The notes under the pieces were generated by a model. It saw nothing but the letters and a program-made list of their open reading frames with translations. It was not told the origin of the DNA and ran no database searches. From a virus: a stretch of DNA of 32,724 nt. Location: the IMG/VR virus record IMGVR_UViG_3300011185_000002; one strand, given 5' to 3'. Of this stretch, positions 13,059 to 32,724 are shown piece by piece. A program made the translations under genes and the position numbers. Position 1 is the first letter of the stretch. Every line of letters starts with the position of its first letter.

Positions 13059-14474
13059 ATGGCACAAGTACTTTACGACGGCTACACAGGAAATGTAACG
13101 GACAACGGTGGTAACGTCATCTCTGGCGCTACCATCGAGGTTTACAATGCTATCGATCCGGATCCGCTGGCTGGGGCTAATACCCTAGCTACGATCTACA
13201 GCGATCGTGATGGCGCTACCTCAGTCGATCAGGGTGTCAGCCCGATCATGTCTGACGCGAACGGGAAGTTCACTTTCTATTCCGATGCCGGGTACTACCA
13301 CATCGTGGTTACTAATGGTGGGGATCAGAGTGCTATCCCGGATGTGCCAGTGGGCACTGCTAAAAGCCTTGATGTTGATGAGGTAGCGGGATCAGGTGGC
13401 GGGCTCTCTGTACTAGGGTCTATTACAGGGGACGTTACGATTAGCGACACACAGATACTCGGCCCGGGATCAGTCACAAAGGAGCAAACTTTTAACGTTG
13501 CTAGTGCGATCAGAGGAGCGGCATTCTGCTTCACAAACTCTGGGCAGCATGCCTACTTATTTGACCTGAACACGACGGATGTTATCCATTATACACTGTC
13601 TACACCTTACGATATCACTACTATGACTGAAGCTAATGATACTATTAATGCTGACGCAATAACAGGCAGCACAGGGGTTACAGAGATGTACGCTGCCGAG
13701 GACGGTGCTAATATATATTTCTTGAACCCGACCACGTATAGGGCGTATCAAGTAGGGCTGTCTAGCACTAACGACCTATCTACTGCCATTTTAGTCGGGG
13801 ATACATTCGTTGTAGGTGGGGCCCCTATACATCTTTGGATTTCAAGGGACGGTAAGTATATGCACGTCCTTGATGATTTCGGGGATGTTGCAATTACGAG
13901 TCTGGGTACTCCTTTTGAAATACTAACGCAGGAGTATTCTGGTTTTTACAGTCTGTCTGGCGTGCTCGGGGCCGGCGATATTGATGGCTTAACTTCTTAC
14001 GCCTTCTCAGAGGACTACGGGATGGCAGTGGCCGCCTCATCATACAGTAGCGAGGTGGATACAGTATTAAATTTTATATCGGTACCGCTGGCAGGAGAGG
14101 GCGGGGGTGTAGCACCTACCTACATAGGTTCATTTATAATCGGCAACGACTCTGTTTTCCCTTTCGGGATGTACATAGAGGGTACGGACATATTTTTGTG
14201 CGCTAACGTAGATGACGAGGTAGCGAGGTTCTCTGCGGTTGACCAAGTAAGTCAAGTCGAGGCCACTAACTTGGGAATTATGACGTATAAGGGGGCAGAG
14301 ATCGACCTGCTCAGTGAGGGGGTGCGGTCTGTTGGTTCAGTATTCTCAGATAATTCTATTATGGTGCGTCCGAGCTTAACCCAATCTAGTCAGCAGGGTG
14401 ATATCACGCTGGTAGTTGATAATGGTGATATTATCACCAGGTATAACGGCTTTAACGTCTGGAGGAAGCCATAA
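13059..14474 (+). CDS. Putative receptor-binding / tail fibre protein (471 aa)
   Basis: The gene follows the tail tip gene. The N-terminal segment VTDNGGNVISGATIEVYNA resembles carboxypeptidase-regulatory-like domains. The C-terminal part shows recurring S/T-P-Y/F-D/E-I/L blade-like repeats and lower GC. The ATG at 13059 follows AAGGTGA. Confidence 0.5.
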   Translation: MAQVLYDGYTGNVTDNGGNVISGATIEVYNAIDPDPLAGANTLATIYSDRDGATSVDQGVSPIMSDANGKFTFYSDAGYYHIVVTNGGDQSAIPDVPVGTAKSLDVDEVAGSGGGLSVLGSITGDVTISDTQILGPGSVTKEQTFNVASAIRGAAFCFTNSGQHAYLFDLNTTDVIHYTLSTPYDITTMTEANDTINADAITGSTGVTEMYAAEDGANIYFLNPTTYRAYQVGLSSTNDLSTAILVGDTFVVGGAPIHLWISRDGKYMHVLDDFGDVAITSLGTPFEILTQEYSGFYSLSGVLGAGDIDGLTSYAFSEDYGMAVAASSYSSEVDTVLNFISVPLAGEGGGVAPTYIGSFIIGNDSVFPFGMYIEGTDIFLCANVDDEVARFSAVDQVSQVEATNLGIMTYKGAEIDLLSEGVRSVGSVFSDNSIMVRPSLTQSSQQGDITLVVDNGDIITRYNGFNVWRKP

Positions 14475-17381: not shown

Positions 17382-17412
17382 CCAGTACCTCGTTTGTTTG
17401 TGTGGTGGTGAT

Positions 17413-17440
17413 GCCCGGGTCTTCGGATCCGGGCTTTTTT
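17413..17440 (+). terminator. Rho-independent terminator ending the late/lysis operon
   Basis: The hairpin is GCCCGGGTC-TTCG-GATCCGGGC, followed by TTTTTT. Confidence 0.85.
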
Positions 17441-17487
17441 ATACCTGACTGAAAATAATTAAATGGGCTATTAGCCCGCTCAGGTGG

Positions 17488-17797
17488 ACCTGTGCATTTG
17501 TGCATTCTGGCTGTGCACCTGCTGCACAACGTAAGCCACTGATATTAAAGGGTTTCAGAGACCTGTGCACTTTGTGCATCTGCCTGGTGTGCGTGTGCAC
17601 CTGTGCAGAGGGGTCCGACCAACTCTTTCTTTTTCTTAGTAATAGTATATGTATATATAAACACGGTAAATCGATAAAGAAATTCAATCTCGCGAGCTGC
17701 ACATCTGCTGCACAAAATGCACAGGCCTGAAAACCACTTAAAATACAAGCATTTGCGCCGTGCACCGACTGCACACCCAAAATGCACAGGTGCACAT
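17488..17797. repeat. Iteron module A: a TGTGCA/TGCACA box array in dyad arrangement around an AT-rich core (candidate origin or operator array)
   Basis: Perfect TGTGCA boxes start at 17491, 17499, 17512, 17564, 17573, 17594 and 17602. Perfect reverse-complement TGCACA boxes start at 17523, 17698, 17709, 17718, 17770, 17783 and 17791. The AT-rich core spans about 17620-17690. No credible ORF is present. Confidence 0.8.
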
Positions 17798-17833
17798 ACC
17801 TGTGAATTCCGGCTTTAATCTGTGATATTATTG

Positions 17834-17862
17834 TTGACCCACCTACCTGATAAGCTTACTAT
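17834..17862 (+). promoter_or_regulatory. Candidate sigma70 promoter for the replication operon (TTGACC, 17 nt, TACTAT)
   Basis: The hexamers lie at 17834-17839 and 17857-17862, about 45 nt upstream of the primase-helicase start and just downstream of module A. Confidence 0.5.
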
Positions 17863-17905
17863 AACAACCAGTCGCATACACAAACACGAACACAGAGGGC
17901 ACCTT

Positions 17906-20470
17906 ATGCTTTTCGAACACCACAAAGCTGACTTGAAGCGCTCCGGGCTATCCGACGAAATGATCGCCGCAATGGGGTGCGAGAGCTTCGACTCACAATC
18001 AATCCAGCGCAGGATCTCTGGCGCTTCCAATGGAGCCGCGTCTGACGGCTACTCAATCCCTTACCCTGGGTCTAACGCAGTCCGCTACCGGCTGAGCACC
18101 GGAGCCCAGTCCGGAAGTGATAAGGCTATCCGGTACCTGTCTCCGATCGCTGACGCGTGGGACGTGTACGTGCCTGCAGGGTTCGACAAACTTAGCACCG
18201 ACACACTGCTAATCACAGAAGGGGAGAAGAAAGCCGCAAAGGCTGTTCAGGAAGGTATCCCAGCTATCGCTATCCCGGGCGTGTGGATGTGGAGGGACCC
18301 GGCTATCGAGCGTGACGGGAAGATGAGCGCCGGAACCCCGATCATCCCGCGTATTGCCGAGCTTGCTAAAGGCCGCAAGGTTGTCATACTGGCGGACTCT
18401 GACGCGAAAGCAAATCAGCAGGTCAAGGCTGCTCTTACGTTGCTCGCTAAAGCGATCGCGCATCAAGTTGAGTGTGAGGCTTCCGTCTTTGCTGTCTGCC
18501 CAGCTCCGGCCGCTGACAAAGTCGGACTTGATGACTGGCTGCTCAGCGATGGTACCAGTCCAGTTCACTCCATGCTGGTAGCTGCCGAGGGTTTTGAGAA
18601 TCCTGGGTTCCGCCTGTCAATACCGTACGCCGAGAAGACTGACGGGTCCTACCTCCACTACCTGATCCCGTTCGACGTTAAGAGTAAGCCGATCCTACCT
18701 CCAGTTCTGAAGGAGTATGAGGAGGACGGGGAGACGATGTACAAGGCGACCGGCGCCCCTTACCTGTACCTGAGGCGTAATCTATTAGTGCTTAACCGCA
18801 ACTCAGACGGTGAATACCGCACTAATGACTCCGACGCGCCAGCTGAGGTCCTCTCAGAAGTGGAGGGTGTTACAGACGATCGCAGGGCCATTCTCGCACG
18901 GCTGAAGGCTACCGACCTATCAGAGAAAGAGGGCATTCTGAAATACGGTCTATCCGGGTCCCCTGCGGAGTTCAGCAAGATCTCACGCGCTCAGCGTAAC
19001 GCACGTATGTGCCCGACCGTTCGAGTGGCTGGGGAGAGGGGCTGGCTGAAAGTTGATGGGAGACTGCACTACCTGTACAGCGATTGTGCTGTAACGCCAG
19101 AAGGTGAAGCCCCTGTACTACCAAATCTAACAAACGACCGCGAGGGTGTCCGAACTGCAGGCGCATCCGGTGACTTTGATCGCTGGGCTGACATTGTTGC
19201 CCAACTCGTAGCGACTCACCCAGTCCAAGCCGCTGTAATGGGGTTCGCTGCAAGTTCTGCTGGCCTGTTCTTTGTACCTGACGCGGAGCCCGGTGTTCTG
19301 CATATCTATGGTGACAGCTCGAAGGGCAAGACCACAACGCTGCAGATCGCCGCTTCTCTAATTGGCCGGGCTACCAATCCGCGTGACCCTAGCAGCTGGA
19401 TCAAAGGCTGGCGGACCACTGACAACGGACTTGAACGTCCTTTGGCTGACACAAATCATGCTCCGCTGATGCTAGATGAGATTCACGCGGCTCCTGCGCG
19501 TACTGACTGGCAGGCAACGGCTTATATGATCGCCAACGGTCGCGGCAAAGAGCGTATGAAGCACACGACTGAGGCGCGCAAGACACCAACTTGGGAGCTC
19601 CAGCTACTCAGCTCTGGTGAAGTTTCAATGGGCGAGAAGATCCGCAAATCTGCAAAAGGTGCCGTTCCTGGTGGGCTGGCTTTTCGGGTTATTGATTTGT
19701 ATGCCGGCAATCTGGATCTTGTCGACCTCGGCATTCACGCTGACGCATGGGAAGAGGTGCTCGGGTATCCGGTTAAGTCTGACGCTGAACTGGCAGAAGC
19801 TCTGGAGACTGAGTTCTCGAACAACTACGGGCATTTCTGGCCTCAGCTTATTGGGTACCTTCGGGATTCTGGGGGGTTCAGCTACGCAGAGATCTATGAG
19901 CGCTTCCGTCGACGGGCAATCGCGTACCTGCCAGAAGACGCATCTACTATCGCTCAGCGTCGTACAAAGCATGTTGCATCTGCAATGGCCGGGCTCTACA
20001 CGATGTGCGAGCTGATCGGAATGGCACCGGACAGAGAAGACAAGGACGTTATCGACAGCGCTGAGGAATGGTGCTACAAAAACATGCTGCTCGCTGGGAT
20101 CGAAGATCTGAGCGGTACCGAAGCAGAGAGCATGATCGAGGTGATTACTGCCGAGATCCTTGCGAACGCTCAGCGCTTTTACCGTCCTGGGGTCGACACT
20201 AAAGGCGGGTCTCAGCTGGGCTGGATTGACGAAGACGGGTCTGTATTCTTGCCAGTGAAGACGGGGTGGAGCCAGCTCTGTCAGGAATGTGGGATCGATT
20301 CCGAGAGGGCCCGGGATGCACTGATGAAACAAGGCTGGAAGAAAGGCCGGTACCGGCACCCAGCTTCGGGCTCTGGATCTAACCCGACAACAACGTTGAA
20401 AGCGTTCGGTCTGATGAAATCGCTGGTTTCTAAAGACGAGAATGAGTCTGACGACTTGCAGCCCCTGTAA
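17906..20470 (+). CDS. Bifunctional primase-helicase (N-terminal Toprim domain plus DUF927/SF3-type P-loop NTPase)
   Basis: The Toprim motifs are LLITEGEKKAAKA and VVILADSDAKAN. Walker A is GDSSKGKTT and Walker B is PLMLDEIH. The segment ANGRGKERM is DUF927-like. An AGAGGG RBS precedes the ATG at 17906. Confidence 0.85.
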   Translation: MLFEHHKADLKRSGLSDEMIAAMGCESFDSQSIQRRISGASNGAASDGYSIPYPGSNAVRYRLSTGAQSGSDKAIRYLSPIADAWDVYVPAGFDKLSTDTLLITEGEKKAAKAVQEGIPAIAIPGVWMWRDPAIERDGKMSAGTPIIPRIAELAKGRKVVILADSDAKANQQVKAALTLLAKAIAHQVECEASVFAVCPAPAADKVGLDDWLLSDGTSPVHSMLVAAEGFENPGFRLSIPYAEKTDGSYLHYLIPFDVKSKPILPPVLKEYEEDGETMYKATGAPYLYLRRNLLVLNRNSDGEYRTNDSDAPAEVLSEVEGVTDDRRAILARLKATDLSEKEGILKYGLSGSPAEFSKISRAQRNARMCPTVRVAGERGWLKVDGRLHYLYSDCAVTPEGEAPVLPNLTNDREGVRTAGASGDFDRWADIVAQLVATHPVQAAVMGFAASSAGLFFVPDAEPGVLHIYGDSSKGKTTTLQIAASLIGRATNPRDPSSWIKGWRTTDNGLERPLADTNHAPLMLDEIHAAPARTDWQATAYMIANGRGKERMKHTTEARKTPTWELQLLSSGEVSMGEKIRKSAKGAVPGGLAFRVIDLYAGNLDLVDLGIHADAWEEVLGYPVKSDAELAEALETEFSNNYGHFWPQLIGYLRDSGGFSYAEIYERFRRRAIAYLPEDASTIAQRRTKHVASAMAGLYTMCELIGMAPDREDKDVIDSAEEWCYKNMLLAGIEDLSGTEAESMIEVITAEILANAQRFYRPGVDTKGGSQLGWIDEDGSVFLPVKTGWSQLCQECGIDSERARDALMKQGWKKGRYRHPASGSGSNPTTTLKAFGLMKSLVSKDENESDDLQPL

Positions 20471-25747: not shown

Positions 25748-26253
25748 AATCATTTATAGGCTGTGACCCAGGACTTAGAGGCGCAATCGCAATAGTCAAC
25801 GAGCGTGCTGAACTTATCAGCTGTTTCGACATGCCAGTCAGAGAGATCCGGGGCGTGAAGACGGCGACCGTGAAGAATGAAGTCAATCCCAGTGAGCTGG
25901 TGGCCAAGCTGGATCCAGGCCCGCTTTACGATCTTGAATATGGTATAATTGAGAGAGTCGGGACGCGCCCAAGGCAGGGAATTGCAAGCGCTTTCGGGTT
26001 CGGTGATAGCTTCGGCGCTGCCAGGTCTGTACTCGAATGTGCATGCGCTGGACGGATCGGGGAAGCGAGACCTGCAGACTGGAAGCGTGACCTGGGACTT
26101 GAAACGCTGGATAAAGACGCGTCAATCGAGAAAGCAAAGAAACTTGTATCCGGATCTGAGCAGTTCCTGACCCGGAAGAAAGATCATGACCGGGCTGAAG
26201 CGATATTGCTGGCCTGGATGGCATTGAAGAGGTGGAAAAATGGCAAACGCTAA
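25744..26253 (+). CDS. RuvC-like Holliday junction resolvase
   Basis: The N-terminus FIGCDPGLRGAIAIV carries the catalytic Asp of the RNaseH fold. The C-terminal segment DHDRAEAILLAWMAL is typical of phage RuvC-like resolvases. Confidence 0.7.
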   Translation: MKSFIGCDPGLRGAIAIVNERAELISCFDMPVREIRGVKTATVKNEVNPSELVAKLDPGPLYDLEYGIIERVGTRPRQGIASAFGFGDSFGAARSVLECACAGRIGEARPADWKRDLGLETLDKDASIEKAKKLVSGSEQFLTRKKDHDRAEAILLAWMALKRWKNGKR

Positions 26254-26812
26254 AGCTACGCAGAAGAAAAAGGCGCCTGAAACGGTGCTTAAGGGCAACC
26301 GGCCGGCAGCTGGTGGCGGGATCAAGAAAAAGCCCGGTAAAGGCCGTAATCCAGTGTCTGAGAACCTATTGATGAGTGTCATTGAGCGGATGTGCGAAGG
26401 TGAGAGCCTGCGCCAGATCTGCCAGGACCCTAAAATGCCTTCAGTAGGGACGGTACTTAACTACGCCATGCTCAGGAAAGGTGTGGGGCAGGAATGGGTT
26501 GAGCGCTTTGCTGAGGCGTACCAGATCGCTAAACAGATTCGGGCTGAGGCCTGGGCAGACGAGCTGGTCGGGATTGCAGACGGCACCGCCCCAATCAGTG
26601 AAGACGTACAACGTAACAAGCTGAGGATCGACACGCGGAAATGGCTGCTGAGCAAGCTGATGAAAGAGTACAGTGAAAAGCAAGCTCATGAAATCAGTGG
26701 TCCGGATGGTGGGCCTGTTAAGTCAGAGAGTCAGGTGATGTTATATCTGCCTGACAACAAAAGAAGCTATGAAGACGAGGGAACTGTTGACGAGCCTGGT
26801 TCAGAACAGTAA
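26240..26812 (+). CDS. Terminase small subunit-like HTH protein
   Basis: GESLRQICQDPKMPSVGTVLNY is HTH-like. RNKLRIDTRKWLLSKLM resembles a family I recall being annotated as terminase small subunit in many phages. The gene is not adjacent to terL. Confidence 0.5.
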   Translation: MANAKATQKKKAPETVLKGNRPAAGGGIKKKPGKGRNPVSENLLMSVIERMCEGESLRQICQDPKMPSVGTVLNYAMLRKGVGQEWVERFAEAYQIAKQIRAEAWADELVGIADGTAPISEDVQRNKLRIDTRKWLLSKLMKEYSEKQAHEISGPDGGPVKSESQVMLYLPDNKRSYEDEGTVDEPGSEQ

Positions 26813-28717: not shown

Positions 28718-29416
28718 ATGCGAGTACTAATTGCATTTGAATCCAGCGGCGTAGTCAGGGAGGCTTTCAGGAGGCTCGGGCATGACGCATGGAGCTGTGA
28801 TCTTCAGCAGGCCGACGATGGGAGTGAGCATCATATTCAAGGGGATGTGATGAGGATCCTTGATGCTGGATGGGACTTGATGATCGCACACCCACCGTGC
28901 ACTTACCTGACTAGCTCGGCAGCGTGGGCGTTTGGGGATGGCCCATACCATCAGAAGGTTAGACCAGAAACCTTGGTAGGTGCAGCCAGGAGAGAGGCCA
29001 GAGAAGAGGCTTTGCGTATGGTGCAGGCATTATTAGAGGCACCTATAAAGCGGATCGCTATTGAGAACCCGTCGGGGTCTATAGGTACTCGAATCCGTAA
29101 AGCAGACCAGTATATCCAGGCGTATGACTTTGGCGAGGATGCCAGTAAGAAGACAGGACTATGGCTCAAGGGCTTAGATCCGATCAAGGGGGAACACTAC
29201 GTTCAGCCACGCTGGGTATGCTGCGGCATGACTCTGCCTGATGGGGTTGGGCGGTATGGGTGCCCAAACTGCTGCGGTGATGAGACCCCTAAGCCGAGAT
29301 GGGCAAACCAAACCCAAAGCGGGCAGAGCAACCTCGGACCTGCTAAAGACCGGTGGAAGGTCAGATCTAAAACCTATCAAGGCATTGCTGATGCGATGGC
29401 TAAGCATTGGGGGTGA
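28718..29416 (+). CDS. Short cytosine-C5 methyltransferase-like protein (232 aa) with a Cys-rich C-terminal segment
   Basis: The motif I-like segment is VLIAFESSGVV, the motif IV-like segment is AHPPCTYL, the motif VI-like segment is IAIENPSG, and the motif VIII-like segment is QAYDFGEDASKKTGLW. The C-terminal segment is CCGMTLPDGVGRYGCPNCCG. No clear target-recognition domain or motifs IX/X were seen. Confidence 0.5.
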   Translation: MRVLIAFESSGVVREAFRRLGHDAWSCDLQQADDGSEHHIQGDVMRILDAGWDLMIAHPPCTYLTSSAAWAFGDGPYHQKVRPETLVGAARREAREEALRMVQALLEAPIKRIAIENPSGSIGTRIRKADQYIQAYDFGEDASKKTGLWLKGLDPIKGEHYVQPRWVCCGMTLPDGVGRYGCPNCCGDETPKPRWANQTQSGQSNLGPAKDRWKVRSKTYQGIADAMAKHWG

Positions 29417-29465
29417 CCCCGGAAAGCAAAAGAAGACCCCGGCCAGGAATGATCGAGGGCTTTTT

Positions 29466-29941
29466 TGTGCGTGTGCACTTTGTGCAGCTGCGCTGTGCAA
29501 TCGGTCGAGTTTGTGCACTTCGGATCCTTGCAAGCGCACATGTATAAATTTTGATCAATCTTATGCTAACCGTAAGTGACTGTTTTTAAAGGGTTTGTGC
29601 ACCTGTGCATTTTGGGTGTGCAGTCGGTGCACGACGCAAGTACCTGATTCTATTGAAGTTTTTCAGTTTGTGCACTTTGTGCAGCAGCTGCGCGATTTGT
29701 GCACCTGTGCAGTGGTAAGGGTTCGCCCTACTTTTTTTAATTTCTTAAGATATATATGAGTATATGAATTAAATAAGGGTCTCATGCGACGTCAAAACTT
29801 TCGTGTTATGCACATGATGCTGCACAAAGTGCACAGATCCTGAAAACCCTTTAGTATCAATAGTTTACGCCGTGCACCGACTGCACACCCAAAATGCACA
29901 GGTGCACATGCCTAGCAAAATCAATGACTTACACTGGTGCA
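29466..29941. repeat. Iteron module B, a paralogue of module A with an extra internal block that creates a perfect 38-bp inverted repeat
   Basis: Perfect TGTGCA boxes start at 29472, 29481, 29494, 29512, 29596, 29604, 29617, 29669, 29678, 29698 and 29706. Perfect TGCACA boxes start at 29809, 29821, 29830, 29882, 29895 and 29903. The AT-rich core spans about 29722-29800. The segment 29596-29633 is the exact reverse complement of 29871-29908. Confidence 0.85.
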
Positions 29942-29996
29942 CCCGTAGCACGCGAGTATGCTACTGGTGCCTTAACAAACTGTAACGTTTATCTTA

Positions 29997-30024
29997 TTGC
30001 ATTAAACTAACAAGCGCGTATAGT
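29997..30024 (+). promoter_or_regulatory. Candidate sigma70 promoter (TTGCAT, 16 nt, TATAGT) for the 30069-31784 operon
   Basis: The hexamers lie at 29997-30002 and 30019-30024, 45 nt upstream of the ATG at 30069. Confidence 0.5.
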
Positions 30025-30068
30025 GGGAACTGTAGACAGCACACAACGAGACAAACAGGAGCACTACC

Positions 30069-30464
30069 ATGGAATTTGACTTTCACACCGCGACTCTGAT
30101 CGATATCGACGTACTTGACCACACCCGCACATTCGAGGCTCACCACGATGACGGTGAGTGCGATACCACAGCTATCGTTAAGGTCACACTGCGCGATAAG
30201 ACCGGGTTCCAGCTGGAGTTTTTTTGCAGCGCTAAATCTGTGAATCACAGCGACTCGGACTGCGCGAGTGAGATCCACTACTACATCAGCCGCGAGGAGT
30301 ACCCTGACGTTCTGATCAACGGCATCCCCGAGCACAACCGCCTTGAGCTCGGCACTTGCCGCCTGTTCATTGACACGAACAACATCGGCGTCTGGCAGCA
30401 TCAAGTAAAGAACTGCCTGCTGAACCGCGATGTTGACGAGATCATTTTCTGGGACCAGGCATAA
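30069..30464 (+). CDS. Strongly acidic hypothetical protein (131 aa)
   Basis: An ACAGGAG RBS is present. By my count there are about 25 Asp/Glu against about 10 Lys/Arg. It is the first gene after the promoter. Confidence 0.6.
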   Translation: MEFDFHTATLIDIDVLDHTRTFEAHHDDGECDTTAIVKVTLRDKTGFQLEFFCSAKSVNHSDSDCASEIHYYISREEYPDVLINGIPEHNRLELGTCRLFIDTNNIGVWQHQVKNCLLNRDVDEIIFWDQA

Positions 30465-30516: not shown

Positions 30517-30957
30517 ATGAACACCAATATCAACGAGCTCACCGAAAAGTTCACCCTGGATACCATCGAGATCCGCCAGCATGCCGCACGCCCTCTCCAG
30601 GATGGTATGCTGAAAACCTACGCGATCGGCGTGATGCAATTCCGCATGCTCGAAGAGCCCAGTGTCCGCCTCCGGTTCCCGGTCTACGCTGAGTCTGACC
30701 TGCACATGTACATTGCCAGCCCAGAGGATTTGCGTTATGACGTGATGCTCGCTGTCGACGTTTGTAACGACCTCTTCATGGGAGTCACTAAGAGCACGAT
30801 CAACGATCCGGAATCTGTCCGTGAATACATCGAGAGCTGCATCCGATTCGAGCAATTCTTTGAGGCTGAGCTACGCGCAGTTGAGAACCTGCCGATCGAG
30901 AATCTCTCCGGAATTGTTGTTGACCATGATCCGGGATCGGATTACTATAACAACTGA
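30517..30957 (+). CDS. Acidic hypothetical protein (146 aa)
   Basis: A TGAGGT RBS is present. By my count there are about 26 Asp/Glu against about 12 Lys/Arg. Confidence 0.6.
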   Translation: MNTNINELTEKFTLDTIEIRQHAARPLQDGMLKTYAIGVMQFRMLEEPSVRLRFPVYAESDLHMYIASPEDLRYDVMLAVDVCNDLFMGVTKSTINDPESVREYIESCIRFEQFFEAELRAVENLPIENLSGIVVDHDPGSDYYNN

Positions 30958-31010: not shown

Positions 31011-31784
31011 ATGAGCAATACTTTCACAAAACTCTATTCCGTTGACTGCAGCATGCACGTTGAAAACAAGAACGGCTTCAGCTACTTGTCCTGGCCGTTC
31101 GCCGTTGCCCAGTTGCGCTCACACGACCCGAAGGCTACCTGGCGCACTATCCGTCACGAAGGCATGCCTTACCTGAAGACTGAGTGCGGCTTCTTTGTCG
31201 AGGTCGAGGTCACTGTCGACGGTATCGCACTGAGCCAGATCCATCCTGTTCTGGATCACCGCAACAAGCCGATCGCTCAGCCTGACGCGTTCCACATCAA
31301 CACCAGCATTCAGCGCTGCATGGTCAAAGCAATGGCACTGCACGGAATTGGCCTTAGCATCTATGCCGGTGAAGACGTTCCGAACCCGGCTAACCTGGCA
31401 CCATCCAACATCAGCGAAGCCGAGGCAGCAGAGATCCGGACACTGATCGGCAAGACTGGCTCCGACGAGCGCAGTTTCCTCGCTTACGTGCAAGCCCAGT
31501 CTGTTGATCAGATCACTCTCGGGGCAATGCATAGCAAAGCGCTGACCGCTCTCAAGTCTAAGCTTAAGAAGCTGGAGGAAAAGAAAGCTCAGGAGGAGGC
31601 AGCCGCTGCCGAGAAGGCTAAGCCTAGCGAAGAGATTGATCAGGATCAGCCCGCATCCGAGCCTAATCAGCCACAGAAGGAGGATCATAGCGCTTCAGAG
31701 CCTGAGACTCATCAGCATGAGATCTCCGATCCTGAGGCAAATGGAGAGCCTGAGGCTAAACCCCGTCGCAGGCGTCGCAACTAA
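31011..31784 (+). CDS. Single-strand annealing protein (Sak / DUF1071, Rad52-like)
   Basis: NGFSYLSWPFAVAQL, INTSIQRCMVKAMALHGIGLSIYAGEDVP is the Sak-family signature. The C-terminal tail is acidic and low-complexity and ends in RRRRRN. Confidence 0.8.
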   Translation: MSNTFTKLYSVDCSMHVENKNGFSYLSWPFAVAQLRSHDPKATWRTIRHEGMPYLKTECGFFVEVEVTVDGIALSQIHPVLDHRNKPIAQPDAFHINTSIQRCMVKAMALHGIGLSIYAGEDVPNPANLAPSNISEAEAAEIRTLIGKTGSDERSFLAYVQAQSVDQITLGAMHSKALTALKSKLKKLEEKKAQEEAAAAEKAKPSEEIDQDQPASEPNQPQKEDHSASEPETHQHEISDPEANGEPEAKPRRRRRN

Positions 31785-31836: not shown

Positions 31837-32724
31837 ATGCCGATCATCAAACCACAAAAAGGACCGCAGGAAGCTTTCATGGCCAGTCCTGCTGACATCG
31901 TAATCTATGGCGGGGCAGCCGGGGGCGGAAAGACTTTCGCGCTACTGATGGAAGCGATCCGACACATCAACAACAAGCGATTTCGTTGCGCTATCTTTCG
32001 ACGCACTCACACGCAGGTAAAACAGCCTGGCGGTCTCTGGGATGAGTCGGGTGAGCTTTATCCGAAGCTCGGGGGCGTGCCGAATAGTTCCGACCTGTTC
32101 TGGCGGTTTCCCTCTGGTATGAAAGTAACTTTCAATTACTTGCAGACGGCAACTGACATGTATCAGTACCAGGGTGCACAGATACCGCTGATTATGTTCG
32201 ACGAGGTGACGCATTTCAGTGAGACGCAATTCTTCTACATGGTCTCGCGTCTGCGATCTGCATCGGGGGTTAAGGGGTACATCCGTGCGACATGCAACCC
32301 GGATCCAGATTCCTGGGTAGCCAGGTTCATTAACTGGTGGATCGGGGAAGACGGGTACCCAGATTCCTCCCGGGCTGGAGTCATCCGATGGTTTGTTAGG
32401 CGTGGTGACGACATCGTCTGGGCTGATAGCCCAAAAGAATTAACGGATCAATTCGGGCCTAAGGCAAAGCCTAAGTCTGTGGCGTTCATCCCGGCAACCC
32501 TGGCGGACAATAAGATTCTTATGGAGAAAGACCCAGAGTACGAGTCTAACCTCGAATCCCTTCCACTGGTCGAGCGTGAGCAGCTTCTAGGTGGCAACTG
32601 GAAGATTAAGCCAGCCCAGGGTATGTATTTCCGCGGCGATCAATTCATGTACTGTGATCGCCATGAACTCCCGAAGCTTCGGCGGATGATTCGGTACTGG
32701 GATAGGGCAGCAACTGAACCCACT
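31837..32724 (+). CDS. terL: Terminase large subunit, N-terminal ATPase part. It runs off the window end and continues at base 124 (that is, into 1..594).
   Basis: There is an in-frame stop at 31816 and an ATG at 31837. The N-terminus contains PQKGPQEAFMASPADIVIYGGAAGGGKT (Walker A). Walker B is IPLIMFDEVTH, and ATCNPD is also present. No stop occurs before 32724. Confidence 0.92.
   Translation, partial: MPIIKPQKGPQEAFMASPADIVIYGGAAGGGKTFALLMEAIRHINNKRFRCAIFRRTHTQVKQPGGLWDESGELYPKLGGVPNSSDLFWRFPSGMKVTFNYLQTATDMYQYQGAQIPLIMFDEVTHFSETQFFYMVSRLRSASGVKGYIRATCNPDPDSWVARFINWWIGEDGYPDSSRAGVIRWFVRRGDDIVWADSPKELTDQFGPKAKPKSVAFIPATLADNKILMEKDPEYESNLESLPLVEREQLLGGNWKIKPAQGMYFRGDQFMYCDRHELPKLRRMIRYWDRAATEPT
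32602..32724. repeat. Terminal overlap, identical to 1-123
   Basis: Direct comparison. Confidence 0.95.

Follow-up and report, generated by a model that had tools for sequence, protein, structure and literature searches.

The stretch of DNA analysed here, IMG/VR virus record IMGVR_UViG_3300011185_000002 (32,724 nt, hereafter the window), represents an entire phage genome of ~32.6 kb, assembled as a circle. Its last ~123 nt (32602-32724) repeat its first ~123 nt (1-123) within the large-terminase (TerL) gene, and since both ends encode the same 41 amino acids of TerL (KIKPAQGMYF...AATEPT), the genome is circular and complete with an assembly overlap. All plausible genes in the list of open reading frames (ORFs) lie on the plus strand, and only two large non-coding gaps are found, holding two arrays of short sequence boxes, module A and module B, each of which heads one of the two operons of the genome. 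Gap A (17382-17902, 521 bp) has lysis/tail genes on its left and a primase-helicase gene on its right. Gap B, put at about 650 bp in an earlier note on this DNA and found to be 652 bp (29417-30068), lies between a DNA methyltransferase gene (28718-29416, phrog_757) and an operon with small ORFs, Sak and TerL, whose next ORF starts at 30069. The two gaps make up (521+652)/32.6 kb of the genome, or 3.6%, as the note had estimated. Module B is the subject of this text.

The 17 exact TGTGCA/TGCACA boxes that the note had counted in gap B, forward on the left and reverse on the right, were recovered at 29472-29908 as 11 forward boxes (29472-29711) and 6 reverse boxes (29809-29908). The core GTGCA gives 30 hits in module B over both strands, with the palindromic GTGCAC counted twice. 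The whole window contains 40 TGTGCA/TGCACA hexamers as compared to 19.5 ± 4.3 expected; besides the 17 in module B, 14 (7 forward, 7 reverse) are in module A, 12.1 kb away, and only 9 in the other ~31.9 kb. The boxes are arranged in mirrored tiers, in the order 38-nt outer block, ~35-bp spacer, inner block, ~95-bp AT-rich core, inner block, ~35-bp spacer and outer block, and an outer block consists of 3 boxes and 1 inverted/palindromic GTGCAC box. The spacers carry sites resembling the consensus of integration host factor (IHF). The features are:

29466-29518, plus strand: far-left (third-tier) box block, with TGTGCG at 29466 and TGTGCA at 29472, 29481, 29494 and 29512
29571-29595, plus strand: spacer-like element CGTAAGTGACTGTTTTTAAAGGGTT, resembling the left spacer of module A and an inverted match of the right spacer (pair I2)
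29596-29633, plus strand: outer-left block, left arm of the 38-nt inverted repeat, with 3 forward boxes and one GTGCAC
29634-29668, minus strand: left spacer, with the IHF-like site AATCAGGTACTTG at 29637-29649 (minus strand)
29669-29711, plus strand: inner-left block, with boxes at 29669, 29678, 29698 and 29706
29712-29808, unstranded: AT-rich core, putative DNA-unwinding element, a pyrimidine run followed by a TA-alternating tract
29809-29835, minus strand: inner-right block, with reverse boxes at 29809, 29821 and 29830
29836-29870, plus strand: right spacer, with the IHF-like site TATCAATAGTTTA at 29855-29867
29871-29908, minus strand: outer-right block, right arm of the inverted repeat, identical to 17759-17796 in module A
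29909-29943, plus strand: right flank, with the IHF-like site AATCAATGACTTA at 29919-29931 and a further GTGCAC box at 29937-29943
17491-17796, unstranded: module A, with outer-left block 17491-17528, IHF-like site 17532-17544 (minus strand), inner-left block 17564-17607, core 17608-17697, inner-right block 17698-17723 and outer-right block 17759-17796
17903-20470, plus strand: primase-helicase gene with DUF3854 and DUF927 domains (Pfam), the proposed origin-binding initiator

By alignment, 17491-17796 of module A and 29596-29908 of module B are collinear, and module A is the syntenic, ancestral copy of the element. The earlier note had described 29595-29660 as a 66-bp block that module B has in addition to module A. 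This was a mis-alignment, as the piece aligns with the outer-left block and left spacer of module A and is present in all relatives. What is extra in module B is instead the far-left part, 29466-29595, made up of a copy of the inner-left block and the spacer-like element; the copied block (29466-29518, repeat family D1) is missing in module A, and its stretch 29472-29497 is 81% identical to 29669-29694.

The AT-rich core, which the note had located by a string at 29732-29776, is the least stable duplex stretch in the genome. The two least stable 50-bp duplex windows are those of the cores of module B (-50.2 kcal/mol) and module A (-53.3 kcal/mol), both more than 4.5 standard deviations away from the genome mean (-71.9, standard deviation 4.1 kcal/mol), and the lowest of all is 29728-29778. 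The two cores are also the two most AT-rich 60-nt windows of the genome, and the core motif TCTTT..TCTT..ATATATAT is conserved in relatives. The IHF consensus used for matching, WATCARNNNNTTR, occurs 6 times in the window as compared to 1.39 expected. Four of these sites are within the modules, where they are mirrored, on the minus strand on the left and on the plus strand on the right, and another four were found in relatives beside the outer-left blocks (L005 120/185, L003 2382, L009 5306). This suggests that a proteobacterial host factor may bend the origin, and a proteobacterial host range is probable.

The relatives, all metagenome-derived, have primase-helicases 55-81% identical to that of the window (L003/L007, L004, L005, L009, L010), and in each of them a single module with this layout immediately precedes the helicase gene. 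In an alignment of six modules from five genomes, with helicases 55-80% identical, 67 of the 80 box-core columns (GTGCA; 84%) were invariant, as compared to 36 of 236 non-box columns (15%). A similar picture was obtained within the window itself: with the identical outer-right block excluded, modules A and B agree at 57/58 box-core positions and at 136/226 non-box positions (Fisher p=3e-10). The boxes have remained identical while the non-box positions diverged, which implies that both copies are under selection. The claim of the note that the array is functional is thereby strengthened, and judging from this pattern of conservation the array is unlikely to be a product of chance. Relatives where the N-terminal primase domain has been replaced (15-26% identity there) retain the TGTGCA module. 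It was also observed that the proteins P0005-P0009 (L005, L006, L009) are without the DUF3854 primase domain, being ~757 aa long with PF06048 only, and represent an N-terminal domain swap in which the helicase and the TGTGCA origin are kept.

The primase-helicase, whose true start is probably the ATG at 17903, is a Cch / SaPI-Rep-type self-loading helicase, SaPI standing for Staphylococcus aureus pathogenicity island. A profile of 24 homologues matched Cch of the staphylococcal cassette chromosome SCCmec (5dgk) with E=7e-31 over profile positions 443-834, the C-terminal region included, and a staphylococcal pathogenicity-island protein (8tch) with E=3e-23; a literature search on PDB entry 8TCH gave nothing relevant. 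The AlphaFold (AF2) model of the helicase (pLDDT 84) likewise had 5dgk as its top Foldseek match (E=4e-21, TMt 0.70), making Cch the closest solved structure. Cch, a DUF927 protein, has been described as related to the Rep helicase of SaPIbov1 (PMC7581432). The C-terminus of the window protein (aa ~740-835) has a winged-helix-like topology in the model and aligns with the C-terminal region of Cch. The putative recognition helix reads ..SERARDA.. in the TGTGCA clade, DRARAA in L008, ARVKAA in L013 and ARLIQA in L011, and appears to change together with the box sequence, which is suggestive only.

These more distant homologues have boxes of their own. L008, with a helicase of 49% identity, has the box CCGTGCACCCC, an AT-rich core and a 38-nt inverted repeat at 97% with arms 264 nt apart, in a module 7 kb from the helicase gene and not upstream of the replication operon. 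In L013 (38%) the box is GTGGGCCAG, and a 48-nt inverted repeat with arms 243 nt apart lies directly 3' of the stop codon, while L011 (27%), a non-phage element, has the box TGCCGACA. A search of bacterial genome contigs with a single helicase sequence gave no match, but a profile scan of bacterial genomes did, and returned 80 loci encoding relatives of the helicase (L014-L093). With an array defined as at least 7 copies of one 7-mer within 450 bp, arrays were present in 28/80 of these loci and in 1/80 block-shuffled controls; 20 of the 28 begin between -150 and +400 bp from the helicase stop codon, and 19 are mirrored. Three of them, L054 4209-4417, L074 4366-4606 and L031 4531-4816, have a 3+1+2 / 2+1+3 layout like the outer and inner blocks of the window. 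When the window proteins were searched by tblastn against the 83 distant loci, none but the helicase was found. It thus appears that the box sequence follows the helicase whereas the layout is retained, and that the position of the array varies within the helicase family (it is displaced in L008, L011 and L014).

Many bacterial DUF927 helicase genes have mirrored, lineage-specific 7-mer arrays within ~100 bp 3' of the stop codon, and the DUF927-linked arrays are probably unannotated origins of integrated elements. A separate observation was made in the GC-rich viral contig L002, where a compact mirrored TGTGCAA array (13140-13301) lies directly 3' of an AAA_25 (RepA/DnaB-like) helicase gene. 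This contig has no protein in common with the window, and the same hexamer beside another initiator family is probably a case of convergence. A further contig from the pattern scan of viral contigs, L001, was rejected, being a chance triple box with no array.

We find it rather likely that the phage replication origin is present twice, module B being the second copy and slightly expanded, and that this origin is an iteron origin of the type known from SaPIs and from phage-inducible chromosomal islands (PICIs). The Rep proteins of SaPIs are self-loading initiator-helicases in which a C-terminal winged-helix domain reads penta- or hexanucleotide iterons, and their origins have 6-12 iterons and an AT-rich centre with at least two iterons per side in opposite directions, onto which two hexamers are thought to load (PMC9371898). 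In Gram-negative PICIs such as EcCICFT073 two iteron sets surround an AT-rich putative melting site, and the function of pri-rep-ori has been tested (PMC6092414). Module B shares with these systems short iterons (5-8 nt) in two oppositely oriented sets around an AT-rich core, in a genome that encodes a helicase of the Rep/Cch type. The likeness to SaPIbov1, SaPI1 and SaPI5 lies in the mirrored short iterons that flank the AT-rich centre, and extends to the helicase, which shares homology with the DUF927 branch (Cch / SaPIbov1 Rep type) and has a primase fused to it, as PriRep5 does. The SaPIs are satellites, however, and the window is a complete ~32.6-kb phage; their origin lies directly downstream of the gene, whereas module A is upstream of it and module B 9 kb downstream. 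The window modules also have 14-17 exact TGTGCA boxes, and more with GTGCA variants, as compared to the 6-12 iterons of SaPIs, and they have a tiered layout with outer and inner blocks, conserved spacers and IHF-like sites, in two copies per genome. The Gram-negative PICIs are similar in layout, with two iteron sets around an AT-rich region, but have a single origin next to rep where the window has two modules. For SCC elements no origin had been identified before the putative origin of Cch2 (PMC7581432). Short iterons downstream of the Cch2 gene are bound by the C-terminal domain of the protein, and this origin comprises just three AAGTG iterons in direct orientation (PMC7581432), unlike the mirrored arrays of the window.

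Other replication systems show a partial resemblance. In the satellite phage P4 the alpha protein is a fused primase-helicase with a C-terminal origin-binding domain, its helicase being of the SF3/D5 type and not known to belong to DUF927, and the octamer iterons TGTTCACC of P4 occur in two clusters several kb apart, ori and crr, both of which act in cis. The P4 iteron TGTTCACC is one mismatch away from TGTGCACC of the window. The second site of the window is, however, a full origin copy with its own AT-rich core, and L009 manages with one module, which argues against an obligate ori/crr-like pair in the clade. The origins of SV40 and papillomaviruses are alike in having inverted sites for an initiator-helicase around an easily melted region and a double hexamer, but the DNA-binding domains are unrelated (theirs is an N-terminal origin-binding domain) and there is no homology of the origin DNA. 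Iteron plasmids (Rep_3 / pi / RepA) combine direct repeats of ~17-22 bp, all in one orientation, with DnaA boxes and a WH1-WH2 Rep initiator, as compared to the mirrored boxes of 6-7 nt in the window, and a scan of 20 window proteins gave no hit of the Rep_3 type. The kind of element, an iteron origin of a self-loading Rep helicase, is known. What is new is its presence in an uncultured phage without a cultured relative, its position upstream of or remote from the gene, its tiers with IHF-like spacers, and its duplication.

In the mechanism that we propose, the TGTGCA hexamers (core GTGCA) would be iterons read by the phage's own primase-helicase, probably through its C-terminal winged-helix-like domain. 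Mirrored tiers would be formed on each side by an outer and an inner block separated by a ~35-bp spacer, in which an IHF-like site could serve for bending, and the spacers, possibly bent by IHF, would bring the outer and inner tiers together. Initiator assemblies on both sides, in opposite orientation, could then melt the (TA)n-rich core, upon which two oppositely oriented helicase assemblies would load and unwind outward while the fused primase primes. Module B would in that case fire itself, and not only serve as an accessory site in cis.

Several observations speak against the origin reading. L009, the only relative that covers the junction from methyltransferase to TerL, has no second module there, which means that module B is a lineage-specific duplication; the clade can do without it, and its role may be an accessory one. 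From the helicase gene to module B the distance is 9 kb, and in L012, a 30% relative, no array was found within 6 kb. GC skew remains positive over nearly the whole genome, with a dip following each of the two modules, and shows no polarity switch of the origin type, although skew is uninformative in a genome with all genes on one strand. A fold search with the isolated C-terminal domain model gave only non-significant hits, mostly to winged-helix proteins. The divergence of a small-terminase-like (TerS-like) protein also tracks the change of the box within the phage clade (63% in L009, 27% in L008), and the position of the modules at the heads of both operons would fit a regulatory role as well. 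Finally, the sequences themselves establish the anatomy, the conserved boxes, the unstable core, the homology of the helicase and the co-occurrence of such arrays with this helicase across the family, whereas box binding, core melting, a role of IHF and firing by module B itself are inferred.

The earlier note also reported a perfect 38-nt inverted repeat in module B, with arms 237 nt apart. We can confirm both the spacing and the match, 29596-29633 being exactly the reverse complement of 29871-29908, and the perfect pairing extends by 0 bases at either end; beyond the 38 nt, an inverted symmetry of 76% spans 115 nt (29572-29686 / 29818-29932, pair I1). A third perfect copy of the 38-mer is the outer-right block of module A, 17759-17796, and a diverged copy with 9 mismatches is its outer-left block, 17491-17528. 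The outer blocks are mutual inverted copies in every genome compared, and the identity of their arms is 76% in module A, 79% in L003, 87% in L005 and L009, 97% in L010 and L008, and 100% in module B. The note had proposed a comparison with relatives as a check on whether the perfect repeat is conserved, and these values show that it is not. In a near-identical strain, ERZ27315351 k141_194780, with 9 substitutions relative to the window in 6.7 kb, 3 of the 9 fall within 24 nt of the outer-left block of module B (29602, 29603 and 29625), all at non-box positions, so that the inverted repeat there is 35/38. This clustering points to a gene-conversion patch, and the reduced match implies selection on the boxes and not on the perfection of the repeat. 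The perfection is thus polymorphic and not what selection acts on. Over ~40 nt (17758-17797 and 29870-29909) the outer-right block of A does not differ from that of B, and it is likely that the perfect repeat is a by-product of homogenisation, by gene conversion, between the mirrored outer blocks of the two modules.

The note had further suggested that the core could be bound symmetrically or extrude as a cruciform. The first part stands, since symmetric binding of protein on either side of the AT-rich centre would agree with the mirrored layout. That the repeat extrudes as a cruciform, and that this is the functional signal itself, is exceedingly improbable. The arms are perfect over 38 nt and the single-strand fold of the region is very strong (-98.7 kcal/mol, z = -15), but this fold is a trivial consequence of the inverted repeat. 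Extrusion requires a short centre of a few nt between the arms and would, as a functional signal, go with conserved near-perfect arms; a loop of 237 nt makes it kinetically implausible, and the arms have the lower and variable identities given above.

The surroundings of the modules also have a bearing on the remaining alternatives. Rfam and tRNA scans gave no Rfam family and no tRNA in gap B, and no tRNA in the window as a whole. A terminator scan found a clear terminator upstream of module A (17413-17434) and no plus-strand terminator at module B, and a promoter scan found no convincing promoter within the module B array. Promoter-like sites are present downstream of both modules:

29997-30024, plus strand: sigma-70-like promoter candidate of the downstream operon, TTGCAT-16 nt-TATAGT, ~90 bp past the module B array, a pattern match only
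17834-17865: promoter-like site TTGACC-17 nt-TACTATAAC, downstream of module A

A motif similar to the candidate at 29997-30024 is found upstream of genes in L010. The TTGACC-17 nt-TACTATAAC site occurs a second time at 30920-30951, inside a 146-aa ORF and just upstream of the Sak gene.

An unlikely alternative, compatible with an origin role, is that the modules are transcription-control regions in which the boxes act as operators or enhancers for a phage regulator or for an autoregulating helicase. It would explain why, in a genome with its genes on a single strand, the only two large gaps each precede an operon and are followed by promoter-like sites (17834-17862 and 29997-30024). Also, the helicase gene has a gene for a small HTH_17 protein as its neighbour. 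The distance from array to promoter varies, however, from ~38 bp in A and ~90 bp in B to between ~20 and 165 bp, estimated by eye, in relatives. The L008 module is not upstream of the replication operon, the arrays of bacterial relatives are 3' of the helicase stop, and the module has also moved in L013, while no other window protein co-occurs with arrays in distant loci. The HTH_17 protein, and also PolA, were not detected in L009/L006, and L009 retains the module. On these grounds HTH_17 was rejected as the main box binder; the argument is weak, the protein being short. It is likewise unlikely that the two origin copies are coupled, either with the initiator on both modules, the heads of the only two operons, linking replication to transcription as an operon-level regulator or insulator, or with the modules as pairing sites (P4 ori/crr or handcuffing), plus a possible resolution of the genome into two circles. 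Such resolution would proceed through the 40-bp direct repeats 12.1 kb apart and the phage's Sak/RecE-type recombinases, each circle receiving its own origin. Quite apart from such coupling, the phage encodes both Sak and RecE/YqaJ-type recombination proteins, and its identical ~40-bp direct repeats could give rise to deletions or let the genome resolve into two circles.

Module B could also be a recent, functionless duplicate of module A kept by chance or gene conversion, which we regard as quite improbable. L009 does without a second module, and the 40-bp block shared by A and B together with the clustered 3-nt polymorphism shows that conversion is ongoing. Outside the converted block, however, non-box positions are 60% identical and box-core positions 57/58, pointing to long-term purifying selection on both copies, and module B has gained extra boxes. 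A very improbable alternative is a packaging (pac) site, with the boxes as recognition repeats for an Sf6-like small terminase flanking the cleavage region. The pac of phage P1 has an IHF site and a cut site flanked by hexamers. All phage relatives, like the window, carry the TerS-like gene (26240-26812 in the window) within the replication module and well away from TerL, and its divergence parallels the change of the box. A P1-type pac is, on the other hand, a single TerS-bound site linked to the packaging genes, and two copies per genome are odd for pac. The same architecture is also found beside homologous helicases in non-phage loci, where tblastn detected no TerS homologue in the ±3-kb flanks, and the central (TA)n tract, where duplex stability falls to an extreme low, is typical of unwinding elements.

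The TerS-like gene is of the Sf6 type and is placed inside the replication/recombination module, ~5 kb from the large-terminase gene (31834 to 594). The separation from TerL is seen also in L009, and the gene is within the replication module also in L008 and L010. Strain ERZ27315351 has a 75-nt insertion at window position ~31620 in the Sak gene (31011-31784), so that the Sak-like annealing protein of this strain has 282 aa as compared to 257 aa, the added residues being in its C-terminal tail, which is acidic and of low complexity. In L010, a 79% relative, a tRNA-like intergenic stretch (13463-13729) contains GGTTCGATTCC twice.

To return to the origin reading, it concerns a phage lineage that is uncultured. 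With blastn, the region 29300-30100 gave a fragment of the methyltransferase as its sole match among cultured phages, tblastn with the window helicase found no close cultured phage relative, and the TerL is at most 55% identical to that of any deposited phage. The result is a concrete and testable assignment of origin and initiator for an uncultured phage lineage without a cultured relative. The duplicated origin and the polymorphism of its repeat constitute a natural experiment, which separates what is selected (the boxes, the spacing and the AT-rich core) from what is a by-product (the perfect symmetry). Sequence alone also shows that, in phages as well as in many bacterial mobile elements, helicases of the DUF927 family (Cch / SaPI-Rep type) come with a mirrored iteron origin that can be recognised as such and whose boxes are specific to the lineage, and this mirrored-iteron pattern could serve for automatic annotation of origins.

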